In this document: positions 1 to 53,596 of the stretch, in pieces
How the letters are laid out: each line of letters starts with the position of its first letter
Position numbering within the stretch: the stretch's first letter is position 1
Source of the DNA: Candidatus Dormiibacterota bacterium
Lineage (GTDB): Bacteria; Chloroflexota; Dormibacteria; Aeolococcales; Aeolococcaceae
NCBI GenBank assembly: GCA_963697085.1
Contig: CAVOMR010000002.1
Coordinates: forward strand, 464,442 to 528,441
Direction of reading: 5' to 3'
Length of the DNA: 64,000 nucleotides
The notes under the pieces: model-generated
Database searches by the model: none
What the model was told of the DNA's origin: nothing
The model's input: the letters and a program-made list of their open reading frames with translations, nothing else
Translations under genes and position numbers: made by a program

Positions 1-127
1 CCTCCTCGGTGAGAACGCGCGCAATCTCGACCTTCATCTTCGACACCGGGATCTCCACGGTGCGGTGATGGGCCTGGTTGGCGTTGCGGATGCGGGTGAG
101 CATATCCGCGATGCTGTCACTGGTCAT
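1..127 (-). CDS. rpsH: 30S ribosomal protein S8, 5' portion (gene runs past window start)
   Basis: Minus-strand translation [42 protein letters not shown] matches the S8 N-terminus; sits immediately upstream (operon order) of S14. Confidence 0.85.
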
Positions 128-130
128 GGG

Positions 131-316: not shown

Positions 317-318
317 GC

Positions 319-882
319 CTAGCTCTTCCTGAAGGGCATGCCGAGCCCCGTGAGGAGAGCTCTGCCCTCCGCGTCGGTGCGGGCCGTCGTCACGATGCAC
401 ACCTCCAACCCGCGCAGTTTGTCGATCTTGTCGTAGTCGATCTCGGGGAACACGAGCTGCTCACGCAGCCCGAGCGTGTAGTTGCCGTGGCCGTCGAATG
501 CTTTCGGGTCGACGCCGCGGAAGTCGCGGATTCGGGGAAGCGCGACGTTGAGCAGCTTGTCGAGAAAGTCATACATGCGCCGGCCGCGCAGCGTCACCTT
601 GATGCCGATCGGCATCCCCTCGCGCAACTTGAACGCGGCGACCGACTTGCGCGCGCGGATCACGATCGGCGCCTGGCCGGTGATCTGCTTGAGATCGGCG
701 ATCGCGGCGTCGATCGCTCGCGCGTTGGTGATCGCCTCGCCCATGCCGATGTTCACGACGACCTTCTCGATCGACGGCACCTGCATGGCGTTGAGGTAGC
801 GGAACTCGGCGACCAGCGACGGCACGATCTCGTCGACATAGCGACGGCGGAGACGGGGCAGCTCTGCGACTTCGACTGCCAT
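319..882 (-). CDS. rplE: 50S ribosomal protein L5
   Basis: [27 protein letters not shown]...[23 protein letters not shown]; start taken at MAVEV; ATGA overlap with rplX stop. Confidence 0.9.
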
Positions 883-1286
883 CAGACCTGTGCCCTGTCG
901 TAGTGCTCGCCGCACTTCTTGCAGACGATCACGCTGCGGCCGAGCTCGTCGAGCCCGTGCGCGATCCGCGTCCGCTTGTCGCAGCGGTTGCAGACCAGCA
1001 TCACGTTGCTGTAGCTGATCGGCCCGTCGAAGTCGACGATGCCGCCCTGGATGTTGCCTTTCACGCCGGACTTGGTGTGGCGCTTGAGCACGTTGACGCC
1101 GCGCACCGCGACGCGCTGCTGCTCCGGGAGCAGGCGCTCGACGATGCCGCGCTTGCCCTTGTCCTTGCCGCTGAGGATCTCGACGTTGTCACCCCTGCGG
1201 ATGTCGAGTGCGCGCACATGCCCACCGGCCCAGCCCTCGTGGCGGAGAGTGGCCCGGCGCTTGCGTTCGACGCGTGGCGTCGGCAT
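882..1286 (-). CDS. rplX: 50S ribosomal protein L24 with C-terminal Cys4 zinc-ribbon-like extension
   Basis: [43 protein letters not shown] core L24, then ...[37 protein letters not shown]; N-terminal 25 aa may be an over-extension. Confidence 0.85.
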
Positions 1287-1287
1287 G

Positions 1288-1656
1288 TCAGATGACCTCC
1301 GGCGCGAGGCTGACGATCTTCATGAAGTTGCGCTCGCGAAGCTCGCGCGCGACGGGTCCGAAGATGCGCGAGCCACGGGGGTTGTTCTGCGGGGTGATCA
1401 GCACTGCCGCGTTCTCGTCGAAGCGGATGTTGCTGCCGTCGGGCCGCTTGTACTCCTTGGTGGTGCGCACCACGACCGCGCGCACGACGTCGCCCTTCTT
1501 CACCTGCGCGTTCGGTGTCGCCACCTTCACCGCGCCGATGATCACATCGCCGACCGAGGCGTACTTGCGATAGCTGCCGCCGAGCACGCGGATGCAGAGC
1601 AACTCGCGGGCGCCGCTGTTGTCTGCCACTTTGAGCACGGATTCCTGCTGGATCAT
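1288..1656 (-). CDS. rplN: 50S ribosomal protein L14
   Basis: [28 protein letters not shown]...; canonical L14. Confidence 0.95.
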
Positions 1657-1934
1657 GTCAGCGAGCCTTCTCCAGCACTTCCGCGACGCGCCAGCGAATC
1701 TCCTTGGAGATCGGGTCGCGTCTCGATGATCCGGACGCGATCGCCGACGCTGCAGCTCTCGTCGTCGTGCACCTTGAAGCGCGTGCTGTGCCGGACGACC
1801 TTCTTGTAGAGAGGATGCGGCTTGCTGATCTGGACCAGCACGATCACCGTCTTCTCCATCTTGTCGCTCACGACGACGCCGTCACGCACCTTGCGGCGCG
1901 GGCGCGGTGCCGGAGTCGCGTCACTCATCGACAT
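1653..1934 (-). CDS. rpsQ: 30S ribosomal protein S17 (apparent 1-nt frameshift near 3' end)
   Basis: [22 protein letters not shown]...[11 protein letters not shown], then the canonical C-terminus [18 protein letters not shown] is only read in the +1 frame after an extra C at about 1712 (homopolymer). Confidence 0.85.
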
Positions 1935-2331
1935 CCTCCTCGACGCCGGTGGTGTCGGCGATCTGCTCCTCGGGCTCCGGGGATTCGGCGGCGGGCACGG
2001 CTGCGGGAACGACCGCCGGGACCTGCAGGCGCGGTGTCGCCGGCTTTGCCTTGGGCTTGGGTTTGGCTGGCGCCTTCGCGGGCGTGGCCGCGGGAGTGGA
2101 CGCGGCGAGGACGAGCTCGGGACGGAGCCCGCGCTCGATCTCGATCTTCACGGTCATCGCACGCGCGATCTCGTGCCGGATCTCACGCACCTGCCGGTGG
2201 TTCTCGACCTGCCCCGTCGCCTGCTGGAAGCGCACCTCGAAGAGACGCCTGCGCTGCTTGCTCAGGTAGTCGTCGAGCTCGGGCATGGTGAGGCGGCGCA
2301 ACTCGATCAGCGACTCGGTCTGCTTGGTCAT
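1921..2331 (-). CDS. rpmC: 50S ribosomal protein L29 with about 68-aa Ala/Pro/Lys-rich then acidic C-terminal tail
   Basis: [62 protein letters not shown] = L29; embedded at the C-terminal end of the spurious 411-aa ORF 1921..3156; ATGA overlap with rplP. Confidence 0.85.
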
Positions 2332-2768
2332 ACCGTCGTCGCCTCGAGATCGGCGCCGGTCTCCTCGCGCTGCAGGAAGCGGGTCTTGATCGGCAGCTTG
2401 AACGCGGCGAGGCGCATCGCCTCCTGGGCGGTCTCGCGCGTGACGCCGGCCATCTCGAAGAGCACCCGTCCGGGAAGCACGACGGCGACCCAGCCCTCGG
2501 GCTGGCCCTTGCCGCTTCCCATCCGGGTCTCGGCCGGCTTCTTCGTGAAGGCGTGGTCGGGGAAGATCCGGATCCAGATCTTGCCGCCGCGCTTGACGTG
2601 ACGGGTCATCGCGCGCCGGGCTGCCTCGATCTGGCGGTTGGTCATCCAGCACTGCTCGACCGCCTGCAACCCGTAGGTGCCGAAGTCGAGCTTGTTGCCA
2701 CGCTGCGCGGCGCCGGTCCGGCGTCCGCGATGGAGCTTGCGATGCTTGGTTCGCTTGGGCATCAGCAT
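2328..2768 (-). CDS. rplP: 50S ribosomal protein L16
   Basis: [36 protein letters not shown]... Confidence 0.95.
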
Positions 2769-2770
2769 CG

Positions 2771-3787
2771 CTACTCCTCCTCTTCCTCGACGGTCTCGGC
2801 GGGGACGTCGGTCTTCTTGATCGCCTTCTTGGGCGCGCGAGCCACCGACGTGGGCTTCTTGGCGACGACCGGCTTGCGCCGGGCGGGCGCCCGCTTGGGC
2901 GTGAGCTTCTCGACCTTCTCGCCGTCCGCGGCGGGGTCGACGCCTGCCGCCGCGATGATCTCCGCGTCCTCATCGATCTCGACGACGTCCTCGGCCGGGG
3001 TCTCGACCTCGACCTCCGCCTCGGGCTCGGCGACCTCGAGCGACACCTCCGCGGTCTCCACCTGCGCCTCGGTCGCGATGCGCGGCGCGGCTGCCGGCAC
3101 GCGGTCCTCGAGGCCGCGGTCCTCCGTGCGGTCCTTGCCCGCCGCGATCGGCTCACCGGTCGCGGTCACGAAGTCACCGAGATACAGCCAGCACTGGACG
3201 CCGATGCGGCCGAACGTGGTGCGCGCCTCTGCCTTGCCGTAGTCGATGTTGGCGCGCAGGGTGTGGAGCGGCACGCGACCGTCGCGGTCCCACTCGCGGC
3301 GGGACATCTCCGAGCCGCCGAGCCTGCCGCTGACCTGGATCTTCACGCCCTTGGCGCCGGCACGCATGCTCCGCATCAGTGTCTGCTTGAGCGCGCGGCG
3401 GAACGCGATGCGCTTCTCGAGCTGCGAGGCGACGTTCTCGGCGACGAGCGTCGCGTCCAGCTCCGGCGTCTTGATCTCGTGGATGGTGACGCGCACCTTC
3501 TTGCCGGAGATCCGCTCGAGCTCGTCACGGAGCGCGTCGACGGACGCACCCTGCTTGCCGATGACGATGCCGGGCTTCGCGGTCTGGATGATCACCGTGA
3601 GCTGGTTGGCGCTGCGCTCGGTCTCGATACGCGCGAGGCCGGCGTTGCGCAGACGGCTGCTGATCAGCCGGCGCATCGCGATGTCCTCGTGCAGCAGCTT
3701 CGTGTAGTCCTTGTCGGCGTACCAGCGCGCATCCCAGTTGCGGTAGATGCCGAGCCGGAAACCGATCGGATTGACTTTCTGACCCAT
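2771..3787 (-). CDS. rpsC: 30S ribosomal protein S3 with about 110-aa low-complexity acidic/basic C-terminal extension
   Basis: [28 protein letters not shown]... KH domain; tail [28 protein letters not shown]...[29 protein letters not shown]. Confidence 0.92.
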
Positions 3788-4294
3788 CTACTCGGCCTCT
3801 TCCTTGGGTGGCTTGGGTGCGCGGCGGCGCGCGGGTCGCGGAGTCGCGGGAGCGGCGGCGCCCGCTGCGGGGGTTGCGGCTGCCGCGGGCGCGACCACCG
3901 GCGTCGGCACGACGGTGCGCGGCAACTTCACGGCGCTGCGACGCCGCACGTTGTCGGGCATCTCGTCATCGGTGACGAATGCGCGCAGATGGCTGGTCCG
4001 CTTGAAGATGCTGCCCGCCATGCCACGCGGCTTGGCGCGCCAGCGCTTGATGATCATCGCGCCGTCAACCTCGACACGCGCGACGCGCAGCGACGATGCG
4101 TCGAGGTTGTAGTTGTGCTCGGCATTCGCGGCCGCGGACTTGATCACCTTCGCGATGTCCACCGCGGCGGAACGCGGCGAGTAGCGCAGCACGACGAGCG
4201 CCTCGGCGACGGGCAGCCCGGTGACCATCGCGGAGACGAGGCGAGCCTTGCGAGCAGTGGTGCGAACCCATTTCGCGGTTGCGACGACTTCCAT
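3788..4294 (-). CDS. rplV: 50S ribosomal protein L22 with Ala/Pro-rich C-terminal extension
   Basis: MEVVATAKWVRTTARKARLVSAMVTGLPVAEALVVLRYSPRSAAVDIAKVIKSA...; start set at MEVVA inside track ORF 3788..4489. Confidence 0.9.
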   Translation of the reverse strand: MEVVATAKWVRTTARKARLVSAMVTGLPVAEALVVLRYSPRSAAVDIAKVIKSAAANAEHNYNLDASSLRVARVEVDGAMIIKRWRAKPRGMAGSIFKRTSHLRAFVTDDEMPDNVRRRSAVKLPRTVVPTPVVAPAAAATPAAGAAAPATPRPARRRAPKPPKEEAE

Positions 4295-4302
4295 CCCAAC
4301 CC

Positions 4303-4587
4303 CTACTTCAGCGCCGTGCTGCGTTCGGTGTGGTGCCCGTGCCCGCGATACCTGCGGGTGTGGGCGAACTCGCCGAGCTTGTGGCCGACCATCGTCTCGG
4401 TGATGAGCACGGGCACGTGCTTGCGTCCGTCGTGCACGGCGATCGTGTGGCCGACCATCTCCGGGAAGATGTCGCTGCGTCGCGACCACGTCTTGATGAT
4501 TCGCTTCTCACGCGACATGTTGAGCTGCTGCACCTTCTTGAGAAGGTGGTCGTCGCAGAACGGTCCTTTCTTGAGCGAGCGGCCCAT
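4303..4587 (-). CDS. rpsS: 30S ribosomal protein S19
   Basis: [23 protein letters not shown]...[16 protein letters not shown]. Confidence 0.95.
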
Positions 4588-41759: not shown

Positions 41760-41902
41760 GGTCGTCATCTACTGGCACTGACCGGCGGGCGCGGGGGATG
41801 TCATGTAGATAGCCCGCGTGCGCCTCTTCATAGGCAGCGGACGCGTTATCCCGGAACGCAGCTTCCGCGAACCAGACCGGCTCCACTTTAAGGGATGGTG
41901 CG

Positions 41903-43180
41903 ATGGAGCGAGACCAGATAGGTCGACATGAGCATATCGACACCGTCATAGCGCGTCAGGCGCGATGCAACACGGGCCTGCTTCCACATCGGCGCCATTT
42001 ACCGTTCCGGTGGCGACGGTCGCAGGTCACGTGGCCAGGCATCGCCACGCCACTGGTGGCAAGCCTCGTGCTGGCGGCCTGTGGCGCGAGCGCCACGTCA
42101 CCGGCCGCGGCGACCCCATCGGTCACGACCCCATCGGTCAACCCAACACCCTCAGCCGTTGCGCCCGCCGCAGAGCTGCAGCACCTCTGGATCGGCGCGC
42201 CACGCGTGGTCGCCCAGATCGGGACGGACCCGGTGCTCCCGGTGCTATCGATCGCCGGCAGCGCGATCTCGCTGAACATCGACCTCGGGCCGGTGGTCCT
42301 GGCATCGGACGCCGCAGCCAGCGGCCCGGGCACGCTGTCGCTCACGCTGCGCTCGCCCATGTACGGCTGCGCCACGGGCGCCGCAGGGACGTACGCGTGG
42401 TCCCTCGCGCCGGGCGGGGGCACCCTCACCTTGACCGCGAGCAACGATGCCTGCGCCGCGCGCGCGGCGGCCTTCGTCGGTACGTGGACCCGCTCGGATT
42501 GTCGCAACACCGCCGACGACTGCCTCGGGACGCTCCAGGCCGGGACACACGCGTCCACCTTCTTCGACGGACGCGACGCGTCGGCCGCCGTCCCCACCGA
42601 CGGGGCCTATGGCCAACTGCGATACACGGTGCCGGCCGGCTGGGCCAACAGCGAGGACTTCCCAATCGACTACGACCTCATGCCGGCGGCCGACTATGCC
42701 GGCGCGGCCGGCGTGACCGATGGCTCGGCCTACCACGGGATCTACATCTTCGCCCGGCCAGCGGCCCAAGCCGACAACGCGAGCTGTGCCAACCAGCTCG
42801 CGCCAGGCGTCGGCCAGACGCCGGCCGCCCTCGCCGCCTGGGTCGCCAACCGGCCCGGCGTTATCGCTACGAAGCCAACGGCCATCACGATCGGCGGCGA
42901 CCCGGGCTTCATGCTCGACCTCCACCTCGCGCCGAACCGCACGAAGCGGTGTCCCGGTGACAGCTTCCCCTCGCAAGGGCTCCTCGTCGACGCCGGTGGT
43001 GCGACCGACGGCTGGAACTGGGGCATCGGCGGCACCGAACAGCAGCGCCTCATCCTCTTGGCGATCGGCGGTGGCCACACCGTGGCCATCTTCGTCGACG
43101 ACAACTCCAGCCCGTCACGCTTTGGCGAACTCGTCGCCCAGGCGATGCCCATCATCACCACGTTCCAGTTCCCGCAATGA
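41903..43180 (+). CDS. Secreted lipoprotein, unknown function (Cys-containing extracytoplasmic domain)
   Basis: ...VTWPGIATPLVASLVLAACGASATSPAAATPSVTTPSVNPTPS (lipobox LAAC); real start probably the GTG near 42030; 425-aa track ORF. Confidence 0.6.
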   Translation: MERDQIGRHEHIDTVIARQARCNTGLLPHRRHLPFRWRRSQVTWPGIATPLVASLVLAACGASATSPAAATPSVTTPSVNPTPSAVAPAAELQHLWIGAPRVVAQIGTDPVLPVLSIAGSAISLNIDLGPVVLASDAAASGPGTLSLTLRSPMYGCATGAAGTYAWSLAPGGGTLTLTASNDACAARAAAFVGTWTRSDCRNTADDCLGTLQAGTHASTFFDGRDASAAVPTDGAYGQLRYTVPAGWANSEDFPIDYDLMPAADYAGAAGVTDGSAYHGIYIFARPAAQADNASCANQLAPGVGQTPAALAAWVANRPGVIATKPTAITIGGDPGFMLDLHLAPNRTKRCPGDSFPSQGLLVDAGGATDGWNWGIGGTEQQRLILLAIGGGHTVAIFVDDNSSPSRFGELVAQAMPIITTFQFPQ

Positions 43181-43323
43181 TCGACGGCCAGGGCGGCGGT
43201 GGACCGACGTTGGCCCCGCATCGGCGGCCGACGCCCAGGCCAGAGATCCGTCCGTCGATCCGCTCAGCCTTCCTTATTGCCGATGGGCGCAATGGCCGGA
43301 CGTGACGACGTGGGGAATATCCG

Positions 43324-43869
43324 GTGTGGGTCGGGATCATGATGCGGGCAGCAATGGCTGGCGAGCAGCGGGCGCTGAGAGACGAGGGAGACGCGAGTTT
43401 CGAAGCGTGTTTCACTGCCGAGGAGCACCGTCTTTTTGCGATCGCCATGTCGATCCTACGCGACCCGGCAGAGGCTCAGGACGCGACCCAGGAGACGGCA
43501 TTGATCGGATGGCGGCGGTGGAGTTCACTCCGGGATCCCGCGCGCTCAGGGGCGTGGCTGGCAAAGATCTGCGTGCACCACTGCGTGCGGCGCAAACGCT
43601 CGCTCGTCCGGTGGCTCAGTTTCGACCCATCCGTCCAGCAAGTTCGTGCGGAGGCAGATTTCCATATGCAGGATGGGGGGCGATTTGCCGATATGGACCG
43701 AGCCTACACACGGCTTTCGGCGCGCCAGCGCGCCGTCGTCAGCCTGCACTATCACCACGGCTACACGCTCGTCGAATGCGCGGATCTCATGGGGTGCAGC
43801 CCCGGATCCGTGTCGCAGCACCTCGCGAGAGCGCTCCGGTCGTTGCGAAGGGACCTCAGCGATGAATGA
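43324..43869 (+). CDS. ECF-type RNA polymerase sigma-70 factor
   Basis: Region 2: FEACFTAEEHRLFAIAMSILRDPAEAQDATQETALIGWRRW; region 4: LSARQRAVVSLHYHHGYTLVECADLMGCSPGSVSQHLARALRSLRRDL. Confidence 0.85.
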   Translation: MWVGIMMRAAMAGEQRALRDEGDASFEACFTAEEHRLFAIAMSILRDPAEAQDATQETALIGWRRWSSLRDPARSGAWLAKICVHHCVRRKRSLVRWLSFDPSVQQVRAEADFHMQDGGRFADMDRAYTRLSARQRAVVSLHYHHGYTLVECADLMGCSPGSVSQHLARALRSLRRDLSDE

Positions 43870-45002
43870 CAATCTTCAGAACTCGGCTCGACGCCTATCT
43901 CAACCGCTTCGAGACTTTTACGTCGCCACCGCTCGCCGTCAGGATCCCCGGGAGGCGCGCCAGACGACTGAACTTCCTGGCCGCCGCCGCTCTCGTTGCG
44001 GTCGTTGCCGTGGTTCTGGCCGCTCCAATCCTACTGTGGAGATTGGACGTCCGACACACGGCGCCAGCGGTGCCGCCGCTCCACCACAACGGGCAGATCG
44101 TGACGGGGCTCGGGAGCACCTTGGTCGCGTTGAACCTCGCCACCGGCGAGCAGCATGTGATCTTCTCCGACCCCGCGGGCGACGCAGTCCTCGATCCCGC
44201 GTACTCGCCGGATGGCACGAAGATCGCGTACCTCGAGGGTACCCTGCTCGACCACGGCATCGTGACAAACCCCACTTCGATTTGGGTCCTCGACACAACG
44301 ACCGGGCACACCCGGCTCCTCACGAGGTGTAGCGGGTGCGACATCTCCGACTACATCAGCTGGTCACCTGACGGTTCGCGTCTGGCCTTCTCTCAGGCTG
44401 ATCAGCGGGGAAGCCTGCAGCTCTATCTCATCGACGCCGACGGCAGCCACCTGACCCAGCTGACCCACTTCCCGGCTGCTCAGAACGCGGCGCAACCGAC
44501 GTGGTCCCCCGACGGCACGCGCCTTGCGTTCACTCTTTTCGGTATTGGAAACATCCCCAACCAGGGGGTGGTCTACACATCGGTCGACCTCGATGTCATC
44601 CGGGCCGATGGCACTGGGCTTGCCACGCTCCTCGCCAGTGGTCAGAACAGCAGCAACTTCACCATCTCCCAATACCTATTCCCGGCGTGGTCGCCAAACG
44701 GCTCTCGGATCGCGTACGTCCTCCTTGACCCGCCAGTGGCGGGCGGAGTCCCCCAGGCCCAGGTGTGGCTCATGAATCCCGACGGCTCGCATCGCACCGC
44801 GATCTTTTGGCAGAACGGCTGCTGCAGCGGCCTGGTGTGGTCACCCGATGGGACGCGGATGGTTGCCGCGACATTTGGTGGCGCTGGTTCTGGCGCGAAC
44901 CAGTCCGGGCTCTGGGTGATGAACGCCGACGGGTTTGCGGAAAAGGACACGAGCGAGATCAGCGACTACCTCGGCCGCCCGGCCTGGCAGCCAGTGCCGT
45001 GA
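43866..45002 (+). CDS. Membrane-anchored TolB-like beta-propeller (PD40 repeats) protein; candidate anti-sigma factor for the upstream ECF sigma
   Basis: ATGA overlap with the sigma gene; N-terminal cytoplasmic segment, TM (LNFLAAAALVAVVAVVLAAPILLW), then repeated ...SPDGTKIAYL..., ...WSPDGSRLAFS..., ...WSPDGTRLAFT..., ...WSPNGSRIAYV..., ...WSPDGTRMVA... Confidence 0.75.
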   Translation: MTIFRTRLDAYLNRFETFTSPPLAVRIPGRRARRLNFLAAAALVAVVAVVLAAPILLWRLDVRHTAPAVPPLHHNGQIVTGLGSTLVALNLATGEQHVIFSDPAGDAVLDPAYSPDGTKIAYLEGTLLDHGIVTNPTSIWVLDTTTGHTRLLTRCSGCDISDYISWSPDGSRLAFSQADQRGSLQLYLIDADGSHLTQLTHFPAAQNAAQPTWSPDGTRLAFTLFGIGNIPNQGVVYTSVDLDVIRADGTGLATLLASGQNSSNFTISQYLFPAWSPNGSRIAYVLLDPPVAGGVPQAQVWLMNPDGSHRTAIFWQNGCCSGLVWSPDGTRMVAATFGGAGSGANQSGLWVMNADGFAEKDTSEISDYLGRPAWQPVP

Positions 45003-45203
45003 CAAACCGTCAGGGCTATCCCAGCGGCAGCACCAGGGGGAACTGGTGGGCGATGACGCCTCGACGGTATCGATCATTCACGAGTGATGGGACTTCGTTG
45101 GGCTCATGATGATGCGCGCCGACGGCTCCGACCGCATGGTGACCTGGCATCCCACGCCACACACAGACAGATCCACACGCGGCCGGGTCTGGGGTAGCGC
45201 CCC

Positions 45204-46499
45204 ATGATGGAACGCCTGGGAACATCTGGCCCTCACACCCGGCGGAGGGCGATGCTGCGCCTCGCGGTTGTCGTCGTGATCGTTGGCGTTGCGTCATGGC
45301 TTGCCACTGGGCAGATCGGGCGCGCCGGGCAGCATTCAACGTCCGCGTCCTCGATCACCAGGTCTTCAGCGTCACCATCCTCGATCACCGGGTTCACAGC
45401 GTCACCATCCTCGATCACCGGGTCTTCAGCGTCACCATCCCTGACGTTGCCGGAGATCGGCCTTCTGTCCGGCGTGACCTGCGTGAGTGCACGAGATTGT
45501 TGGGCAGATGGTTCCAACGGATCATCAACACTGATGGTCCATTACGCCGGGAGTGGCTGGGCCTTCGTCACCGCTCCTTACCCGGCAGGGTCCACTGCTG
45601 CGTTGAACGGGGTGACCTGCGTGAGCGCTGACGATTGTTGGGCGGTTGGGAGTTCTGGCCCGGCGGGGCAGCCCGGTGATGCACCGCTGATCGAGCGCTA
45701 CACCGGGAGCAGCTGGACGATCGCCTCCGCCCCCGACCCTCGCCTCGGTCCGAACGTCGTGCTGAATGCAGTGGCCTGCATGAGCGCTGGGGAATGTTGG
45801 GCGGTTGGCGACTCCGGAAACGCCAGCGCCACCAGCCCACTGGTCGAGCGCTACACGGGGGGCCGCTGGGTGATCGTCGGCATCTCCAACCCGAGCCCGG
45901 ACCCGTTTGCTGTCTTGAATGGGGTGGCCTGCATGAGTAATGGGGAGTGTTGGGCGGTCGGCTACTCAGGCAATGTCAGCATCACCCGCCCATTGATCGA
46001 GCAGTACACGGGAAGCCGCTGGATCATCGTCGACGCGCGGAACCCCAGCGCAGCCCCCTTCGTCGCGCTGAATGCGATCGCCTGTGTTGGCCAACAGTGT
46101 TGGGCGGTTGGCTCGTCCGGCATCGGCGAGCCGGCGCTGCTCGAACACTTCACCGGAAGCACGTGGGTCATCGGCGCCCAATCCAGCGGGGGGGTCGCGA
46201 TCGGGGTGAGCTGTCCAAGCGTCGAGGACTGCTGGGCGGTTGGTCAGACCCAGCAACCAGCGATCGCCCAAGGTCCGCCGATGATCGAGCACTACAACGG
46301 GATCAGCTTGACAGCCGATCACACTCCAAACCAGATTGCGGGCGAAACCGGGGCCGTCTTAACTGGGGTGTCCTGCGTGAGTGTCTCGGACTGCTGGGCG
46401 GTGGGCTTTGGTGGGGGGGAGGGCAACCAGGGAACAATCATCGAGCAGTACACGGGGAGTGACTGGCGCGTGATTCGTGCTCTGAGCCACGGGCCGTGA
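45204..46499 (+). CDS. Signal-anchored secreted repeat protein with about 8 copies of a roughly 46-aa 'LNGVxCxSxxxCWAVG' repeat (novel; beta-propeller-like) after a Ser-rich linker
   Basis: LSGVTCVSARDCWADG / LNGVTCVSADDCWAVG / LNAVACMSAGECWAVG / LNGVACMSNGECWAVG / LNAIACVGQQCWAVG / GVSCPSVEDCWAVG / LTGVSCVSVSDCWAVG, each followed by ...ERYTGS(S/R)W(T/V)I...; N-terminal TM MLRLAVVVVIVGVASWLATG. Confidence 0.7.
   Translation: MMERLGTSGPHTRRRAMLRLAVVVVIVGVASWLATGQIGRAGQHSTSASSITRSSASPSSITGFTASPSSITGSSASPSLTLPEIGLLSGVTCVSARDCWADGSNGSSTLMVHYAGSGWAFVTAPYPAGSTAALNGVTCVSADDCWAVGSSGPAGQPGDAPLIERYTGSSWTIASAPDPRLGPNVVLNAVACMSAGECWAVGDSGNASATSPLVERYTGGRWVIVGISNPSPDPFAVLNGVACMSNGECWAVGYSGNVSITRPLIEQYTGSRWIIVDARNPSAAPFVALNAIACVGQQCWAVGSSGIGEPALLEHFTGSTWVIGAQSSGGVAIGVSCPSVEDCWAVGQTQQPAIAQGPPMIEHYNGISLTADHTPNQIAGETGAVLTGVSCVSVSDCWAVGFGGGEGNQGTIIEQYTGSDWRVIRALSHGP
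45344..45442 (+). repeat. Coding tandem repeat, about 3 x 33 nt (tcaccatcctcgatcaccgggtcttcagcg) encoding Ser-rich linker SASPSSITG-
   Basis: Protein: SASSITRSSASPSSITGFTASPSSITGSSASPS; nucleotide repeats read directly at 45344-45442. Confidence 0.8.
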
Positions 46500-46686
46500 C
46501 CGACGGCTCCCACACGTCGAGATCTGGCATCGCAACCCGAGCATGAACCTCGTTCATTCAGGCTAAGCTTGGGCCACTGCACCATGATGCAGCGGGCTGA
46601 GACGTCAGCATCGTATGGCCGGCGGAGTGCCGCGGATGCACGCGAGGCTTCGTCGTGAGCGTGGGGTGGTGTCCGGTGGGATTACG

Positions 46687-46716
46687 GAGGGGTTGTATTA
46701 ACGACGGACGAGGTTG
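46687..46716 (+). repeat. 30-bp direct repeat, copy 1 (gaggggttgtattaacgacggacgaggttg); 25/30 identical to 50241..50270; att-like
   Basis: Direct comparison of the two 30-mers; the shared 3' 11-mer ggacgaggttg is the reverse complement of the HNH codons for N-L-V. Confidence 0.7.
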
Positions 46717-46774
46717 ATCAATACCCTCTGCCGGGTCTAGATGCCTCCCTTGTCGCGGAGCGCCTGCAGCGCCT

Positions 46775-46978
46775 TCAGCGCAGCCAGTCGGCTTCGGAAT
46801 TGGGCTTCATCCGAACGAGAACGTCTCGAGCACGGAGGCAGTAACCGCACGTAGCACACTTCGAGCTCGGGCGGGCTGCAGGTAGATCACGTATCCCGAC
46901 GCTGGACTTCTGATATGTGAGCGGAACGAGTCGGGTCGAGTGACATCGCGGACATAGCAGCAAGGTTCCGTGGAGCAT
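46775..46978 (-). CDS. Small Cys-rich ORF (CxxC...CxxC zinc-ribbon-like), possibly a degraded gene remnant
   Basis: MLHGTLLLCPRCHSTRLVPLTYQKSSVGIRDLPAARPSSKCATCGYCLRARD; lies in a locally low-GC, gene-poor stretch. Confidence 0.2.
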   Translation of the reverse strand: MLHGTLLLCPRCHSTRLVPLTYQKSSVGIRDLPAARPSSKCATCGYCLRARDVLVRMKPNSEADWLR

Positions 46979-47034
46979 GCAGAATTTCGCAGGAGTGGGC
47001 CGTTGGCCGTTTTCGGTCGAGAATGGAGGCGGTA

Positions 47035-47280
47035 TTAGTAGATGTGGGCGGTCCGGACCATCCTCACCAAGTCCGTGAGGCGTGAATCGACGGCAATTCT
47101 CGTTGCACGACCCGCCAAGTCGCTGAGTTCACGATCAATATGATCGAGAATCGCGCTCACTTCGTCGTCGTTGAGCGAGAAGCCGACCACCGCGGCGGCG
47201 GCATCGATGTCCTGACTTCGGATGGTGACCGGGATCCGCACCTCGCGCGTCATTGCAGTGCTAACCATGGCGAGTATCAT
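47035..47280 (-). CDS. Hypothetical small protein (81 aa)
   Basis: MILAMVSTAMTREVRIPVTIRSQDIDAAAAVVGFSLNDDEVSAILDHIDRELSDLAGRATRIAVDSRLTDLVRMVRTAHIY; no confident family. Confidence 0.3.
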   Translation of the reverse strand: MILAMVSTAMTREVRIPVTIRSQDIDAAAAVVGFSLNDDEVSAILDHIDRELSDLAGRATRIAVDSRLTDLVRMVRTAHIY

Positions 47281-47726
47281 CGTCCTCCAGGGCGGGGCGG
47301 GAGGTGTAGTGGGCTTGTACGCCCGTTCCGTCTGGCATCCATCGTTTCCGAACGAGCGCCGATGCACAAGAGCCGAAGGTCCCGTTTGGCAGAACGGGAG
47401 GAGAGCCGATTGTCACATCGAAAACCGTCCGAACGACGAGGAGGAGCGTGCTGGCTGATCCCACTGTCGATGAGGACCGTCACCGCACCTGCTCAGAAGT
47501 CACGTCGCAGCGAGTTCTGCCGACCAGCGACGTCATGCGACGGAAGGGCCAATTACGATCGGCGAGTGAAGCTACCGCCTCTCGGCGTTACCCCCTGAAC
47601 ATTCGAAAGACGGCAAGCACCGGTGACGACCTTGGCTCGCCGACAAGTGACTGCACCCCAGCGTCCTTTCTCACAAAACAGACATCCGGCGCCATGTTCG
47701 CGATGATCTTCACCGACTGCCGGAAG

Positions 47727-48318
47727 TCACTTGACGACACCCGCGCCTGCCGCGTTGACGACTTCCCAGCGAGCTCCGAAGGCGTCGATCCCCTCGCCGT
47801 TCGCCACGCCCGGCGCCGAATCGGCGATGAAGTAATAGAGCGGATGACCGTCATAGGTAACTTGGGTCGTCCCGTTCTGGCGCTTGGTCGTGCCGAGCTG
47901 ACTCTGCAAGACGCCGCTCGTCGCTCGTGGGGCACCAATCGTGGTCAAAGGGGGCCAGTTCTGCGCGCACGCCCCTTACAGGTGGACGTCGTGCCTGCGT
48001 CACCCAGGAAGAGATATAGGGTTCTGCCGTTGCCTCCGACGAGGATCTGCCCCAGGTCACCGACGCTGCGCAAGGCCATTGCCGTGCCCGTCGCCGGAGC
48101 GGACGGTGCGGGCGTCGACGTCGGCTTGGCCGTGGCGTCGGCGTGGTTACAGTTGTCGGCGTCGGTGGCGGCGTTGTGGAAGATGGGGCAGTCGGGGTTG
48201 GAGATGTTCCGCCGATTGTGCCGGTGGTTGCAGACCCGCAGGCGGCGAGGATAAGCAGACTAAAGGTACCGCCCAACATCACGAGGTTCCGTGTCATCTG
48301 TCCGTGCTCCGCGGTCAT
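47727..48318 (-). CDS. COG4315-family secreted lipoprotein (Yx(F/Y)xxD motif family); frameshifted around 47990
   Basis: N-terminus MTRNLVMLGGTFSLLILAACGSATTGT... (lipobox) in ORF 47851..48318; C-terminus GTTQVTYDGHPLYYFIADSAPGVANGEGIDAFGARWEVVNAAG in ORF 47727..47948; the middle (LVGGNGRTLYLFLGDAGTTSTC...) is readable only by shifting frame at a GGGG run. Confidence 0.7.
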
Positions 48319-48503
48319 GGCCGCATATCCCGTTGACTCCTGAGTGGGTCACGAACCTCAATACGAGCGGCAGTTACGGATTACGGGAAACGACATCGGC
48401 GCCGCTACATTTCGCCGTCTGGCCCTGTAACTCAGCGCCGTACGAGGAGCGTTTCTGAGCGGTCGACTCCTCACGGTGCCCCCGTCGTCTCGCTACCCTT
48501 CTC

Positions 48504-49058
48504 GTGATGGTCGATCCTCTTCCTAAATCCGAGAGTGCCACCCAAGTGATCACGTGGAATGTGATCCCCGGCCGGGAGGCTGCCTTCGAGAACTGGGCAC
48601 ATGACATGACAACCCTCGCAACGCGCCAGGAGGGTCACATGGGCGCCGCGTGGTTGCGTCCGGAGGCTCGCGGTGGGGCCTACCACGTGGTCTTCCGGTT
48701 CACCACCACCGAGCTACTGCAACAGTGGATGGGCTCGGATGAACGGGCCGGAATGGTGGCGAACCTCAAAGGAATCGCAACCCAACAAGGCCACCAACAG
48801 ACGGGCTTGGAGACCTGGTTCAGCCTCCGTGGTCAGACCAACTTGCCTCCTCCAAAATGGAAAATGGCTCTCGTGACCTTCGGTGCGGTGTATCCGCTCA
48901 GCATCCTGTTCACCTGGCTCGTGGTGCCCTCGGTGCAAAGCTGGTCCATCGTTTGGCGCGCCGCGTTATTCCCCCTCGCTCTCGTTCCCCTGTTGACGTT
49001 CGTGATCATGCCGCGATTGAGTGGGCTGCTCAGACACTGGCTCTACGGAACAAGGTGA
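48504..49058 (+). CDS. ABM (antibiotic-biosynthesis-monooxygenase-like) domain protein with C-terminal transmembrane segment(s)
   Basis: QVITWNVIPGREAAFENWAHDMTTLATRQEGHMGAAWLRPEARGGAYHVVFRFTTTELLQQWMGSDERAGMVANL then WKMALVTFGAVYPLSILFTWLVVP...LFPLALVPLLTFVIMPRLSGLL. Confidence 0.6.
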   Translation: MMVDPLPKSESATQVITWNVIPGREAAFENWAHDMTTLATRQEGHMGAAWLRPEARGGAYHVVFRFTTTELLQQWMGSDERAGMVANLKGIATQQGHQQTGLETWFSLRGQTNLPPPKWKMALVTFGAVYPLSILFTWLVVPSVQSWSIVWRAALFPLALVPLLTFVIMPRLSGLLRHWLYGTR

Positions 49059-49222
49059 TGTTGATAAGGGCCGGGGACGATTCGTTTAACAGCCCGAGGG
49101 ACTGCCGATACGGGCACTACGAGAAATCAGTCGCATCGACAGCGCCACACCGAGCGAGTACTCGCGCGTTGTCGTCGTTGGCGTCGTCGCTTGCCGCAAT
49201 GAGGTCGTAGGAAGGAGCGAGC

Positions 49223-50083
49223 ATGGAACCCAGGGCGATCAACCCGATCGACTTCCGCGAGGCGCAGCACAAGCACTGGGACTCGGCTGCGGTCGGATGG
49301 ATGGAGTGGAGCGAGTTCAATGACAACGCCGACAGGCACATCAGCGAACGGCTCGTAGAGCTCGCTGATGTGCAGTCGGGAAGCCGGGTGCTGGACGTCG
49401 CCGCCGGCTACGGCGAACCGGCCCTCACCGCAGCGCGTAGGGCGGGCCCGGGTGGCCGCGTTGTGGCCACGGACATCTCCGCCGAGATGCTCGCGTTTGG
49501 GCGTGTACGCGCGGCCAAGGCCGGGTTGCGCAACATCGAGTTCTTGGAGTCCGACGCCTACAGCCTCGATTTTCCCGACGCGAGCTTCGACGCTGCCGTC
49601 TCGCGCTGGGGAATCATCTTCGAGCCTGACGCGGAGGCCGCCGCGCGGCACATCCGAGGCTTCCTCAAGCCGGGCGCACGGTTGGCGATCAGCTCCTGGG
49701 GCGAGCCCGCTCGGGTCCCCTTTCTCTCGATTCCTTTGAGGACCACGATGGAGCGGCTGGGCGTGCCTACGTCCCCAGCCGGAACGCCTGGGCCTCTCTC
49801 CCGGCCCACCCCCGCTGCCATCGGTGCGTTGCTCGAAGGAGGTGGGTTCTCGAAGGTCGCCGTGGAGCAGGACGAGGTCACCTTCGAGTTCAACTCCCCG
49901 GAGCACTTCACCGCCTACATCAGGGCGATCTCCGCGCCGATTCGGGCGATGATCGAGCAGTACGCGGGCGAGGCCCAGGAAGAGGCTTGGGACGCGATCA
50001 CGCACGCTGCAGCCAATGTGGGGGGTGGCTCGAACCCGCTTAGCTTCTCGAACGTGGTGCTGCTGGCCTCGGCAACCGCATAG
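49223..50083 (+). CDS. Class I SAM-dependent methyltransferase
   Basis: SRVLDVAAGYGEPALTAARRAGPGGRVVATDISAEMLAFG...IEFLESDAYSLDFPDASFDAAVSRWGIIF (motifs I, post-I, II). Confidence 0.8.
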   Translation: MEPRAINPIDFREAQHKHWDSAAVGWMEWSEFNDNADRHISERLVELADVQSGSRVLDVAAGYGEPALTAARRAGPGGRVVATDISAEMLAFGRVRAAKAGLRNIEFLESDAYSLDFPDASFDAAVSRWGIIFEPDAEAAARHIRGFLKPGARLAISSWGEPARVPFLSIPLRTTMERLGVPTSPAGTPGPLSRPTPAAIGALLEGGGFSKVAVEQDEVTFEFNSPEHFTAYIRAISAPIRAMIEQYAGEAQEEAWDAITHAAANVGGGSNPLSFSNVVLLASATA

Positions 50084-50240
50084 CCTCCCCTCGCGCTAAG
50101 AACCGCCTCGGGAATCCGGGAGAACTCAGGGGTGGCATCGTTGAGCGCGGGGTGGCATGGCTCGGTTCAGGTACGCCGTCGGGGCGTCAGGTGACGAGCC
50201 CGTTCCTCAGCCGTGGCTGATCTCACTCGGTGGGCTCCGC

Positions 50241-50270
50241 CAGGGGATGTACTAAGGATGGACGAGGTTG
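50241..50270 (+). repeat. 30-bp direct repeat, copy 2 (caggggatgtactaaggatggacgaggttg), at the junction between inserted DNA and the middle HNH fragment
   Basis: 25/30 identity with 46687..46716; 3' part encodes N-L-V of the HNH gene on the minus strand; the related core gaccaggttgg also occurs at 41751..41761. Confidence 0.7.
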
Positions 50271-50365
50271 TCGAGCTCGGTGGGACCGCCATCTGCCCAG
50301 TGGATGATGTGGTGGCCGTCGGTCCATTCAATCGGCCGGTCGCATCCCGGGAAACGGCAGCCCCG
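50252..50365 (-). pseudogene. Middle fragment of the REP13E12/DUF222-type HNH endonuclease gene (RGCRFPGCDRPIEWTDGHHIIHWADGGPTELDNLV-HP*), fused in frame to truncated istB
   Basis: Canonical HNH motif CxFxGC...HHIxHWxxGGxTxLxNLV; preceded without a stop by IstB ...TSNRGFGDWNQ. Confidence 0.8.
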
Positions 50366-51019
50366 TTGATTCCAGTCACCGAAGCCGCGGTTACTGGTGA
50401 GCACGATCGAGGCCTTCTCGTAGCGCCGGCTGACCATCTGAAAGATCCAGTTCGCCGACGCCTGATCGAGGGGCAGGTAGCCGAGTTCGTCGACCACCAG
50501 CACTGACGGACCGGTGTAGGTGCGCATCTTGTAGCTGGCCGTGCCCTCGAGGTGCGCCGACTGGAGGTTGGCCACCAGGTCGGCGGCGGATGTGAAGTAG
50601 GTGCGATAGCCGGCCTCGGTGGCGGCGATGCCGAGTGCAATGGCGAGATGCGATTTGCCCACACCGGGTGGCCCGAGCAGGATGACGTTGCGGCGCTCCT
50701 CGACGAAGCGCAGCGTGGAGAGTTCGGCGAGCACCGTGCGGTCGAGCGAGGGCTGGAAGTCGAGGTCAAACTCGGCGAGCGTCTTGTGAATCGGGTAGCG
50801 CGCAAAGCGCAGCCGTCCGCGCAGCCGACGTGCCCGGGTTGCATCCGCTTCGATCGCCATGAGGCGTTCCAACACCTGCGTCGCCGAGGCCTGCTCGCGC
50901 GTGCCGCGGTCGAGCTCGTCGGCAAGATGCTCTGCGGCGGCGCTCATTTCGAGGTACGCAAGATGTTCGCGCAGGCGCTGATACGCGCTGGGGTCCGAGC
51001 TGCTGGCACGCGGGCTCAC
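50366..51019 (-). CDS. istB: IS21-family transposition helper ATPase IstB (about 219 aa retained, C-terminally truncated)
   Basis: RNVILLGPPGVGKSHLAIALGIAATEAGYRTYF (Walker A)...SVLVVDELGYLPLDQASANWIFQMVSRRYEKASIVLTSNRGFGDWNQ. Confidence 0.85.
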
Positions 51020-52047
51020 AACGCCACCTCGTAGGCGCTGAGCGGACGCACCTCAACCTGCTCGCCGAGCTGACGTTGCGCGGCATCGACCACGTGCAGA
51101 ACGGGGCGCGCAGCGTCGTCGCCGGCAAAGCGTTCGAGCAGATGGCGGGGCACGGCGCTGAGCAGACGGCGTTCCTCGGCCCAGGCCTCGCCGATGATCC
51201 GCTGGGTGGTGCGGTGGCGGCGCGGCAGGATGCGCTCCCGGATCCAGCGCAGCGCGAAGGCGTCGTAGTCGGCGATGCTCGGCCGAGGCGGCAGCACCTG
51301 GCCGGTGAGCCAGCAGCGAAAGCTCTGCTCGACCTCACGGTTCTCGCGTTCGACCTTGCCTTTGGTTTTGGCGCGGTATGGCCGGCACGCACGGGGCACC
51401 GTGCCCAGCAGTGCGCAGAGGTCGATCCACTCGGGGACGAACAGTGGGCCGTCGGCGGCGTGGTTGCAGAACACCGTATCGCGGTCGGTGAGCAGCTCCC
51501 GCGTGACCCCACCGAGGTCGTCGAGGCAGCGCACCAGGCGCTCGAAGCTCACCTCCCGCGTGCAGCTGGCAGCGATCCGGATCGCGGGCATGCGGCTGTG
51601 CCCGAGGATCGCCACCATGGCGTGGAGCTCGACCAGCTCCTCGCCGAGCGGCCAGCTCCCGATGTGCTTCCAGTCCGCCTGGGTCTGCACACCGGGCAAC
51701 GTCTCGAAGCGCACCTCGGGGTCATGTGGCAGGGCGGGCCGGAGCGGACGGACCTGACGCAGGAAGGTCCAATAGCTGCCCGCATAGCCGTATTCGGTGC
51801 GCAGCTCGTGGTGCAGGTCGGTGCTGCGCAGCACCGGACAGACCAGCAGCCGGCATTCGATGTGGGCCAGCTGCGCTTCGTTGAGCGGGTGGCGCGGGGC
51901 GCGCTGCGGGTACCGAGACGGGCGCTCGGCGTCGAGCTCCCTGCGCACCGTGCGCCGGTTCAGCTTGAAGTGGCGGGCGAGCGCACTGACGCTCCATCCG
52001 TGTTGGTGCAGGACATGCAGTTCCATCCAGAGTTCCTCAAACTCCAC
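51016..52047 (-). CDS. istA: IS21-family transposase IstA
   Basis: MEFEELWMELHVLHQHGWSVSALARHFKLNRRTVRRELD (HTH)...WKHIGSWPLGEELVELHAMVAILGHSRMPAIRIAAS...TDRDTVFCNH...YRAKTKGKVERENREV (DDE domain). Confidence 0.85.
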   Translation of the reverse strand: MEFEELWMELHVLHQHGWSVSALARHFKLNRRTVRRELDAERPSRYPQRAPRHPLNEAQLAHIECRLLVCPVLRSTDLHHELRTEYGYAGSYWTFLRQVRPLRPALPHDPEVRFETLPGVQTQADWKHIGSWPLGEELVELHAMVAILGHSRMPAIRIAASCTREVSFERLVRCLDDLGGVTRELLTDRDTVFCNHAADGPLFVPEWIDLCALLGTVPRACRPYRAKTKGKVERENREVEQSFRCWLTGQVLPPRPSIADYDAFALRWIRERILPRRHRTTQRIIGEAWAEERRLLSAVPRHLLERFAGDDAARPVLHVVDAAQRQLGEQVEVRPLSAYEVAL

Positions 52048-52190
52048 GGCGGTCCCTCTTGGTGCTGGTGGCGTTGAACACCGTCCAGCTTGCCCGGAGG
52101 GACTGCCTTTTTTCCGATCACGATCAGGTCCGATCCACCCCTGAGGACCTGTGCACTATTGTGTCAGAACTGCGCATATTCTGTAAAGAG

Positions 52191-53222
52191 GTCGCGCACC
52201 ACCAGCGCAGTGCGGATGTGCACCGGGATGGTGCGCGCGGCGCGACCCACCGAGAGCGGCACCACCGGCGTCGTGACTGCCGAGAGCCACGCATCGGTAC
52301 CATCCGCACTATCCGAAGACAGCGGCACGGTCACCTCGGTCTTGACTGCGTCGCAGGCGATACGGCGTGCGGTCTCAGGATGGATCGGCCCCGCACCCTG
52401 GAGCGTCGCGGCCTCCGCATCCGCATCATTGCGCAGCGCTGGAGCACTCACCGTGACGGTGAGATGCGGCCGCTGCCCGTGCATCTCGGGAAGCGCAGCA
52501 GAGCGCAACTGCGAGGCAGCATGGTCGACCAGCGCATCCGCACGACGCTGCGACGCACTGCGCGTGTCCCCAGGACGGGGCATCTCGGTGATCGCATCGA
52601 GCCAGGTCTTGACCAGGGCGCCGCTTTCGGTGTCGAACTGCCCCTGGGAGAACCACTCACCGCCGTACGACTGATCGAGGTTGAACCAGCGGCGCTCGTG
52701 GGCACGGTTGTCAGCGGCAAGGACCCCGTCGGGATCGACCCGGAGCCGGGTTGCCTGGATGACGGTGCGCATCGGCCCGGCCTCGAGGGTCTCCGCCGCT
52801 CCCACCAGGATCATCTCCAGTGGAGCGATCTCCGCCACCCCGACCTCCTTGGCGAGGGAGGCAATCTGGGTCACGTTGCTCAACGAGGCACGGCCGGCAC
52901 GAGCGCTGTCGAGCGTGGCCGGCAGTTCGCTCAGGGTCCGCGCCAGATGCACGCGTTCGGCAGCCGCCTTCCCGGTCATGGCGCAGTGATGGCGCACCCA
53001 GGAGGTCGTGCTCACGCCTCCATCGGCGAGCGCACCGTGGGCGCGGTCGAAACGTCCCAGGCGACGCAGGCACTCAGCCTCGAGCCGGTCGATCAGCAGC
53101 CGGATGTCGATCACGTCCGCGCCCAGTGCGTGCGTCGAAAACCCCTCGATGGGCTCGGCGACGAGAGCATCAACCGCGCTCGTGAGACGGTCTCGGGCAT
53201 CGGGAATTGCGAACGCTTCCAT
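52191..53222 (-). pseudogene. 5' portion (DUF222 domain) of the REP13E12-type HNH endonuclease gene, interrupted after ...ALVVRD by the IS21 element
   Basis: MEAFAIPDARDRLTSAVDALVAEPIEGFSTHALGADVIDIRLLIDRLEAECLRRLGRFDRAHGALADGGVSTTSWVRHHCAMTGKAAAERVHLARTLSELP... typical DUF222; track ORF 52164..53222 ends LFTEYAQF*, which is IS-derived. Confidence 0.8.
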
Positions 53223-53596
53223 TCACGGAAGTATAGCAAACATGTGTTCGCCAATGCCTGGACTCAACACGGACAATGTGTGTCCGTGTCGACTTATTGC
53301 CATCTTCGGCAATAACAACCTCCCGCGTAGCTGGGACCATCGCCGACGACGACAACTCCCGCCTGCTTGTGCGCGAAGAAGCCCTGCACGGGAGGCGTCG
53401 CCGCCGAGTAGAACGGCCAACTCAGCGGAGTCGCGAAGCCCTTTCCGCGGCCGGCGTCAGTGACGATGCGCGCCTGCGCGCGCGCCGATCGGACTACCGC
53501 TCTTCTCGAGATGGTTCGTGGCGCGCGCGGTGGTATGCGACCAGGCAGAGAACGGCCGCGTATTCCAGGGAGGGCATCCCCGCACCGGAGCCGCGA

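Follow-up and report, generated by a model that had tools for sequence, protein, structure and literature searches.

We describe an insertion sequence (IS) of the IS21 family that lies inside a DUF222-HNH gene on a contig of a metagenome-assembled genome (MAG) of a Candidatus Dormiibacterota bacterium (CAVOMR010000002.1 of assembly GCA_963697085.1, positions 464,442 to 528,441). This whole 64-kb stretch (64,000 nucleotides (nt)) is called the window, and all positions are given in its numbering. The open reading frame (ORF) of the IS helper gene istB continues, without a stop codon, into HNH sequence of the interrupted host gene, and an earlier note made from the letters alone had drawn attention to this chimeric ORF. 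Our analysis indicates, with a probability that we put at about 0.85, that the IS is a dead, immobile IS21-family remnant and that the IstB-HNH fusion ORF is accidental. The fusion is read as accidental because the stop codon of istB was lost and 35 host HNH codons followed in frame, for which the chance is 1 in 3; the read-through halts two codons into a second inserted element. The IS cannot transpose, because its right terminal inverted repeat (TIR) has been lost, its left TIR is without the terminal TG, the spacing of the repeats has changed, and IstB is truncated. The flagged feature is ordinary genome decay with somewhat unusual junctions and has little biological weight; the right annotation for the chimeric ORF is a pseudogene, not a new ATPase-nuclease fusion.

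Structure of the IS and of the Fusion ORF

The IS, its genes istA and istB, and all pieces of the HNH gene lie on the minus strand. Three ORFs cover the insertion:

52164..53222, minus strand: DUF222 ORF, 352 amino acids (aa), ending ...ALVVRD plus LFTEYAQF and a stop, the last eight codons being IS-derived
51016..52047, minus strand: istA ORF, 343 aa
50252..51019, minus strand: third (fusion) ORF, 255 aa, reading ...IVLTSNRGFGDWNQ, then RGCRFPGCDRPIEWTDGHHIIHWADGGPTELDNLV, then HP and a stop

In a longer rendering, the fusion ORF reads ...LTSNRGFGDWNQ up to the junction, followed again by RGCRFPGCDRPIEWTDGHHIIHWADGGPTELDNLV and by HP and a stop. Its residues 20-218 match the IstB_IS21 profile over positions 3-201 of 238 (Pfam PF01695) and 3-199 of 232 (NCBIfam NF038214), and residues 225-253 match the HNH family PF01844 (Pfam). 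The inserted IS block (52190..50366) comprises 1825 nt (3n+1) and splits the host gene between ...ALVVRD and RGCRFPGC.... The PF01695 and NF038214 matches of IstB, together with the NF033546 match of IstA, bear out the assignment to the IS21 family made in the earlier note. Its statement that IstB runs in frame into host HNH sequence, with no stop and at an exact codon boundary, also holds: the join ALVVRD/RGCRFPGC is gap-free against 10 intact homologues of the host protein (consensus ALxLRDxGCRFPGC), and the DNA of the closest homologues, loci L018 and L019, agrees. What had been called a downstream HNH fragment is indeed HNH sequence, but it is actually a 105-nt middle piece of the gene, cut off on its far side by a second, 8.5-kb insertion. 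Beyond what that note had reported, the left end of the IS was found to be crippled as well, and the target-site duplication (TSD) to be absent. The inserted block is composed as follows:

52184..52190, minus strand: host/IS left junction, CTCTTTA (7 nt), next to the host Asp codon GAC at 52193..52191
52148..52183, minus strand: degenerate left TIR, with both 19-nt IstA-binding-type repeats, each with single-G deletions (GAGCASGAAT to xA-CAS-AAT)
52048..52147, minus strand: IS 5' untranslated region between the left inverted repeat and istA, with substitutions only relative to L008, L022, L021, and L003
51016..52047, minus strand: istA, IS21-family DDE transposase, full length, no frameshift (NF033546 transpos_IS21, 2-293 of 294, E = 3.5e-55)
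50366..51019, minus strand: truncated istB (istB'), helper ATPase, cut after codon 218 (...GDWNQ)

IstA is 93-94% identical in aa sequence to its counterparts in L001 and L008, scores 187.6 bits against a cut-off of 160 (NF033546), and also matches rve and helix-turn-helix (HTH) domains; its DDE residues were assigned by inspection to ADWKH, LTDRD, and KVERENR. The truncated IstB scores 208.4 bits against a cut-off of 200 (NF038214; E = 2e-62 for PF01695) and keeps the Walker A (GPPGVGKSH), Walker B (VVDELG), and sensor I (LTSN) motifs, and istA and istB overlap in a GTGA start/stop at 51016..51019. Alignment to four canonical copies showed ~1.7 kb of IS coding sequence to be free of frameshifts. 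Of the substitutions found in the window copy alone, 28 are synonymous and 14 non-synonymous, with 12 synonymous and 13 non-synonymous changes in istA and one non-synonymous change in the retained istB. Such counts are a signature of purifying selection, that is, of evolution as an active element rather than of long neutral decay.

At the right junction, the IS halts after the Gln codon CAA (50368..50366) and the host restarts with CGG at 50365, and homology to the canonical IS spans 52181..50367. Gone from this side are the C-terminal 48 aa of IstB, the stop codon, and ~65 nt with the right inverted repeat, which amount to ~209 bp relative to full-length copies. The right-end truncation and the loss of IstB residues proposed earlier are thereby confirmed, although the estimate of 35-45 residues was slightly low. 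No right inverted repeat is present anywhere in the 64-kb window, in accordance with the earlier observation; exact, 3-mismatch, and word-7 blastn searches of the window found neither the missing right end nor another copy of the IS, and comparison of the two ends of the inserted block gave only chance-level matches between inverted repeats. A TSD is likewise absent, the flanks ...GCGCGAC and CGGGGC... being contiguous host sequence. Of the features that characterize a mobile IS, the window copy lacks three: a complete IstB, a target duplication, and a pair of TIRs.

The left end was compared with L008, L022, L021, and L003 by MAFFT and by global alignments. The ~140 bp of IS sequence previously seen upstream of istA were found to be ~143 nt, the first 7-9 of which align poorly to the canonical end. 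In the global alignment, IS nt 1 directly follows host ...GCGCGACC, and eight lesions are apparent: G2 replaced by C, loss of A4-G6, G8 replaced by T, and single losses of G10, G13/G14, G19, G33, and G37. All eight involve G on this strand and fall within IS nt 1-37; a 3-nt AGG deletion among them contains the sole non-G loss, A4. The lesions hit 8 of the ~17 G positions in IS nt 1-50 and become sparser inwards, and the next 110 nt are free of indels. As a result, the terminal TG is gone from the left TIR and the spacing is altered in both repeats; the occurrence of parallel lesions at equivalent sites of both repeats is not significant given the G-specificity (about 0.14). The heptanucleotide CTCTTTA may be filler, or it may be what heavy damage has left of the first ~13 nt of the IS (canonical TGTAGGTGAG...). 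The variant left end of the window copy is CTCTTTACAGAATATGCGCAGTTCTGACACAATAGTGCACAGG, and its repeat had no other occurrence in the window and 0 matches in a scan of JGI metagenomes. Candidate causes of the G-only lesions are repair by an error-prone route, selection against binding of the transposase, and a wrong consensus where a repeat begins or ends.

Full-Length Relatives and the Canonical IS

Relatives were found by an IstA scan of species-representative genomes. The same IS occurs in Candidatus Dormibacterota MAGs, with IstA identities of 93% (L001), 94% (L008), 84% (L002), 82% (L003), and 72% (L004), and more distant IstA relatives occur in Chloroflexia. Copy-versus-copy comparison showed the canonical IS to be ~2040 bp long (L001 3851..5893, L008 3852..5888), with the left end TGTAGGTGAGCAGGAATAGTGCGCAGTTCTGAGCACGAATAGTGCACAGG and the right end TGTAAGTGGGCACGAAGAGTGCACAGAGTTGAGCACGAAAAGTGCACAGC (reverse complement). 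Alignment of full-length Dormibacterota copies defined the expected ends and inverted repeats, for which the earlier note had suggested ISfinder entries: the termini are TGT...ACA, with two ~19-nt repeats at each end (L001, L008, L021, L022), and the copies are flanked by 5-bp target duplications, namely GCCTC (L001), CCGTT (L008), and CCAGC (L021). Beyond GDWNQ, the canonical IstB continues for 48 residues, VFADPVVASAIVDRLLHNATVINIKGHSYRMRRYDAAQQAKGGSAMVA, to a stop that is followed by ~65 nt with the right repeat. The left end is near-identical in five canonical copies despite 10-20% divergence elsewhere and is clearly under constraint in active copies. Homologues of IstB were abundant (n = 6256 in a collection of 5.8 billion proteins); the best 120 of these are 228-346 aa long, most of them 250-304, and cover at most 85% of the fusion ORF, none reaching the HNH tail. 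In a plasmid collection, the nearest annotated istB genes were 65-71% identical at the DNA level and uninformative for the ends.

These relatives connect the window copy with known members of the IS21 family. As in IS21 and IS5376, istA (HTH and DDE) and istB (AAA+ helper) are consecutive and overlap in the window copy, and its full-length relatives share TGT...CA-type ends, a 5-bp TSD, and two repeats at each end like the L1/L2 and R1/R2 repeats, an organization that has been described for IS21 (PMC10122671). Integration by IstA requires both TIR repeats and the terminal CA (PMC10122671). The window copy differs in that it is without the right end, 48 IstB residues, and TSD, and its left end is mutilated, so that it offers no substrate to IstA. 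IstA of IS5376 is ~400 aa long, versus 343 aa in the window copy. Homology places the window copy in the IS21 family, within an uncharacterised Dormibacterota lineage.

Three of the relatives are themselves altered. In the two closest full-length copies, istA is frameshifted (L001 4001..5092, L008 3893..5105) while ends and TSDs are canonical, and these frameshifts are either MAG assembly errors or signs of decaying copies. In L004, from a Dormibacteria MAG, an insertion of ~2.2 kb lies in istB at 1766..3994 and splits the IS homology into 120..1766 and 3994..4312.

Origin of the Remnant and Alternative Explanations

How the remnant arose is a separate matter, for which we give somewhat better than even odds to normal transposition followed by break-and-rejoin damage at both IS ends. 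Normal IS21 transposition would have brought the IS into the HNH gene, IS nt 1 being still alignable against host DNA, and break-and-rejoin repair, acting where the transposase cleaves or close by, would later have destroyed its ends. On the right side, this repair would have removed 209 bp of the IS and the five adjoining duplicated target bases; on the left side, it would have left behind a cluster of error-prone-repair lesions, and the product would be an immobile element with an intact istA. We prefer this sequence of events because IS insertion and truncation are common, because the left breakpoint lies within 0-10 nt of the true IS end, and because the intact IstA encoded by the element would keep nicking its own ends. 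Break-and-rejoin from a cleavage site would explain why the right deletion ends at the boundary between IS and flank, TSD bases included, and also why lesions are restricted to the ends of the IS, with no frameshift in the ~3 kb of non-selected sequence around them. The evidence points to end-specific damage over random deletion at the right junction, for which the "precise deletion" envisaged in the earlier note is a fair description. Truncated IS remnants with read-through ORFs, in which the loss of an IS end likewise leads to immobility and to an ORF reading into the flank, are common in decaying genomes; the window differs from them in that the host sequence is seamless and the damage is limited to both IS termini, which is unusual for random deletions. 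The remnant is an unusually clean case of end-specific IS inactivation and may help to reveal how an IS is disarmed by its host or by repair systems.

Several points weigh against transposition followed by damage. A seamless host sequence needs a right deletion that ends exactly at the outer edge of the TSD, a coincidence under any deletion model, whose chance we place roughly between one in a hundred and one in ten. The G-only lesions of the left end could even be consensus errors of metagenome assembly at a repeat boundary. Inspection revealed no convincing microhomology at either IS junction, which counts against this history and also against the capture of a fragment discussed next. No empty-site orthologue was found (site ...GTGGTGCGCGACCGGGGCTGCCG...), the closest HNH homologues being 84% identical, and neither the sequence before insertion nor, with it, the target bases first duplicated can be reconstructed. 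Finally, the search for a donor copy covered the 64-kb window.

An IS21 fragment, either internal or excised and nibbled, may instead have been captured by end joining at a double-strand break in the HNH gene, or copied in by template switching during replication, with error-prone synthesis or junctional filler accounting for the G lesions and CTCTTTA. In that case, neither proper IS ends nor a target duplication would ever have existed at this site. This explanation would change only the history of the remnant, and we consider it unlikely, though deserving of serious attention. The lack of a target duplication, a host that is seamless to the nucleotide, and the non-canonical state of both IS termini all suit it, and, with the coding parts of IS and host being pristine, the end damage looks like one event and not like slow decay. 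However, few cases of DNA fragments captured at breaks have been documented in bacteria, insertion of an IS followed by truncation is common, and a left breakpoint 0-10 nt from the true IS end is what is expected of a transposase. The second insertion, only 105 nt away, could mark a local recombination hot spot, but it is separately explained as a site-specific element, and the clustering needs no single complex event. A bolder proposal is that the IS21 segment never transposed here at all: it would have been pasted in by break repair at a hot spot made by undescribed, NLV-homing islands of the integrase type (see below), and the G lesions would be the footprint of an error-prone polymerase. 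We regard this proposal as improbable.

It is very improbable that the junctions, or at least the G deletions of the left end, are assembly or consensus artefacts, that is, errors at a multi-copy repeat. The source is a MAG contig of 1.0 Mb, the related MAG copies L001 and L008 carry frameshifts in istA, and the lesions are gathered at the edge of a repeat, the kind of place where polishing performs worst; yet a chimeric join cannot put an IS fragment between the two halves of a gene seamlessly on both sides, the right junction is clean, as are all coding regions, and the deletions lie outside homopolymers.

Hardly any credence can be given to a domesticated, functional IstB-HNH fusion in which an AAA+ ATPase is coupled to a nuclease motif. 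The ORF is open, the GTGA overlap, which would permit translational coupling, is kept together with an intact istA, and the retained istB has just its one private non-synonymous change; the low ratio of non-synonymous to synonymous change (dN/dS) is, however, accounted for by the time in which the IS was still active, prior to the lesion. This architecture is absent among the listed top matches of the 6256 IstB and 3585 HNH homologues, and a gene-position index has the exact protein on record in no other assembly, nor the exact DUF222 ORF. Sensor II of IstB sits in the C-terminal helices, and mutants of the ATPase site have been assayed for their effect on integration (PMC11208146). The IstB part of the fusion is without these sensor II helices, its HNH part is without the second Cys/His pair, and the ORF ends in the end of an unrelated element; a product that lacks both the sensor II helices and the second half of the HNH motif would be very unlikely to function. 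The "unusual short-ended IS21 relative" that the earlier note had offered as its other explanation, a mobile element whose IstB ends near GDWNQ and whose right end lies inside what is istB in others, has nothing but the in-frame, codon-exact junction in its favor and is next to untenable, since the best 120 of the 6256 IstB homologues all run past the break point, full-length relatives with TGT...ACA ends and TSDs exist, the right junction resembles neither the left end nor terminal CA-type repeats, a target duplication is missing, the variant left end occurs nowhere else in the window or in JGI metagenomes, and the canonical left end is near-identical across copies that are up to 20% apart elsewhere.

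The Host DUF222-HNH Gene

Homologues of the host gene were obtained by a search with ...ALVVRD joined to RGCRFPGC..., which gave 3585 HNH homologues, mostly ~404 aa long; the 352-aa DUF222 ORF of the window is P0001 among them, on a contig of 1,003,104 bp. Three pieces of the gene and its conserved upstream part were recognized:

53230..53315, minus strand: conserved 5' non-coding part of the HNH unit, kept upstream of HNH genes in L018, L019, L025, and L030
52191..53222, minus strand: piece 1, codons 1-344, ending ...ALVVRD (PF02720 DUF222, E = 2e-24); 83% identical to residues 1-341 of P0002 (406 aa)
50261..50365, minus strand: piece 2, 35 codons RGCRFPGC...LDNLV (PF01844); residues 343-376 of P0002 (tblastn), and DNA alignment to L018 and L019
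41658..41759, minus strand: piece 3, NLVSLCRRHHRAVHEQGWRIHMADGLPVVEPPP and a stop; residues 374-406 of P0002 (blastn and tblastn with intact homologues)

Piece 3, which reads NLVSLCRRHH... to its stop, lies 8.5 kb from piece 2 on the same strand, and its first nine nt, AACCTGGTC, repeat the last nine nt of piece 2, AACCTCGTC (50269..50261). None of the three pieces contains a frameshift, and jointly they supply what defines the DUF222-HNH family, namely DUF222 followed by an HNH motif with two Cys/His pairs. Piece 2 is out of frame with its own 5' part, because the insert of 1825 nt is 3n+1. The host gene is a REP13E12-like pseudogene split in three. REP13E12, of the "13E12 repeat family" of Mycobacterium tuberculosis, has the same layout of an N-terminal DUF222 and a C-terminal HNH motif, within a very large family (>3500 homologues).

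The region 5' of the HNH gene (~100 nt) includes a hairpin, TTATTGCC-N6-GGCAATAA, a palindrome, CGAACACATGTTTG, at 53250..53237, and a -10-like TATACT at 53235..53230. A LexA-box-like palindrome, CGAACAnnTGTTTG, is common to DUF222-HNH units, as is a -10-like hexamer that precedes the start codon by 7-9 nt. The LexA-box consensus is of the GAAC-N4-GTTC type, and our reading of the palindrome is based on it. This arrangement suggests that HNH units may be under SOS control and expressed in a nearly leaderless manner. The mycobacterial 13E12 family is regulated by DNA damage, and in the comparison with REP13E12 the LexA-box-like palindrome stands upstream of the host gene here.

Large guanylate-cyclase/AAA (STAND-like) genes recur beside DUF222-HNH genes (L018 2968..5754, L030 11313..14705, and a set of 9 loci). 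They are placed upstream of the intact HNH gene in L018, and as cargo right after the island left end, described below, in L030 and L084.

Putative Islands That Target the HNH Motif

The second insertion in the window, of 8.5 kb, separates piece 2 from piece 3 of the host gene and consists of the following parts:

50205..50260, minus strand: island left end (LE), ~56 nt, CATCCTTAGTACATCCCC...CCGAGTGAGATCAGCCACGGCTGAGG; also seen directly behind NLV in L025-L030 and in at least 86 metagenome instances
41761..50204, no single strand: island cargo of ordinary accessory genes, coding for a secreted 425-aa protein, an ECF sigma factor, a PD40 protein, a repeat protein, a frameshifted Lipoprotein_15, an ABM monooxygenase, and an S-adenosylmethionine (SAM) methyltransferase

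The final codons of the fusion ORF, H-P-stop (stop at 50254..50252), come from this LE. Many HNH homologues of other genomes end at the same point (...NLVHR, ...NLVNR, or ...NLTHP, each followed by a stop), and in the DNA of L025-L030 a conserved sequence stands right after AACCTCGT(C/T), with unrelated DNA beyond it. A metagenome scan with the query AAYCTSGTNNATCSTTARTACRNCCCC yielded at least 86 instances in at least 80 loci. Their consensus is AACCTCGTC[C/A]ATCGTTAATAC[A/G]NCCCC, then 5-9 variable nt, then GCCGCCGAGTGAGATCAGCGTCGGCTG; the LE, of ~56-65 nt, directly follows the core AACCTCGTC, which encodes N-L-V of the HNH motif. Downstream of the LE the cargo varies greatly, with 40 unrelated contexts and no recurrent adjacent protein gene, and upstream of it there is usually HNH-motif coding sequence from several subfamilies, often just a ~60-nt remnant. 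The window sequence 50269..50205 fits the core and the second conserved block that is common to many of the at least 86 instances.

A second recurrent upstream context, ...CTGCCCGATGGTTTGCAAGACGCAGTTGGATGGCC, directly precedes a displaced HNH 3' end in L073 and is for this reason taken as the right end (RE) of the element; it is ~100 nt long and ends ...CAGTTGGATGGCC. Joints of RE, core, and LE may mean tandem elements or attP-like junctions; example positions, among loci L025-L110, are L058 1396, L094 1413, L073 235 and ~1950, and L030 11105 and ~14990. In the window, the 40 nt before AACCTGGTC and the HNH 3' end resemble the RE consensus weakly. We rejected the 9-nt repeat as a simple target duplication, since the 5' and 3' HNH pieces of L030 overlap by ~60 nt and differ in sequence over this overlap; the repeat is therefore regarded as a recombination core within homologous sequence and not as a transposition-type duplication.

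Two loci contain genes for tyrosine integrases (PF00589, 49% identical to each other): L071 at 1256..2446 and L031 at 963..1913, both on the minus strand relative to the LE. Both genes are situated 0.8-0.9 kb inward of the LE, with transcription directed towards it, and their products are candidates for the recombinase that moves the HNH-targeting elements. The other loci, many of them short, showed no integrase in the sequence available, and no recombinase (integrase or transposase) was found among the scanned ORFs of 41761..50204. Taken together, these data point to a family of putative site-specific integrative islands that would target the NLV codons of DUF222-HNH genes and that seems to be undescribed in Rfam and in the open-access literature searched. 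The islands insert at codons of the HNH catalytic motif, in parallel to phiRv1, a prophage-like element that integrates into REP13E12 of M. tuberculosis (PMC9317374), where an HNH gene likewise serves as the landing site of a site-specific integrative element. The two systems differ in that phiRv1 uses a serine recombinase, whereas tyrosine recombinases are associated with the islands described here, and in phylum, here Dormibacterota. The island family is abundant in Dormibacterota-type soil and peat metagenomes and is a more interesting lead than the IS remnant.

Two further interpretations were considered and abandoned. A conserved hairpin in the LE was dropped, the apparent compensatory changes not being supported by RNAalifold, and the 8.5-kb block was rejected as a TIR transposon or a composite IS21 transposon, as it has no repeats, IS ends, or transposase. 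No tRNAs were found, and Rfam gave no match. The first gene of the block has homologues that are 60-69% identical (87% in one partial match) and that occur in differing contexts without synteny. Within the island, ~1.2 kb (46500..47700) has a lower GC content (0.60-0.61) and no convincing coding frame, and the adjacent Lipoprotein_15 gene (47727..48318, minus strand) is split by a frameshift into a signal-peptide ORF (47851..48318) and a domain ORF (47727..47948).

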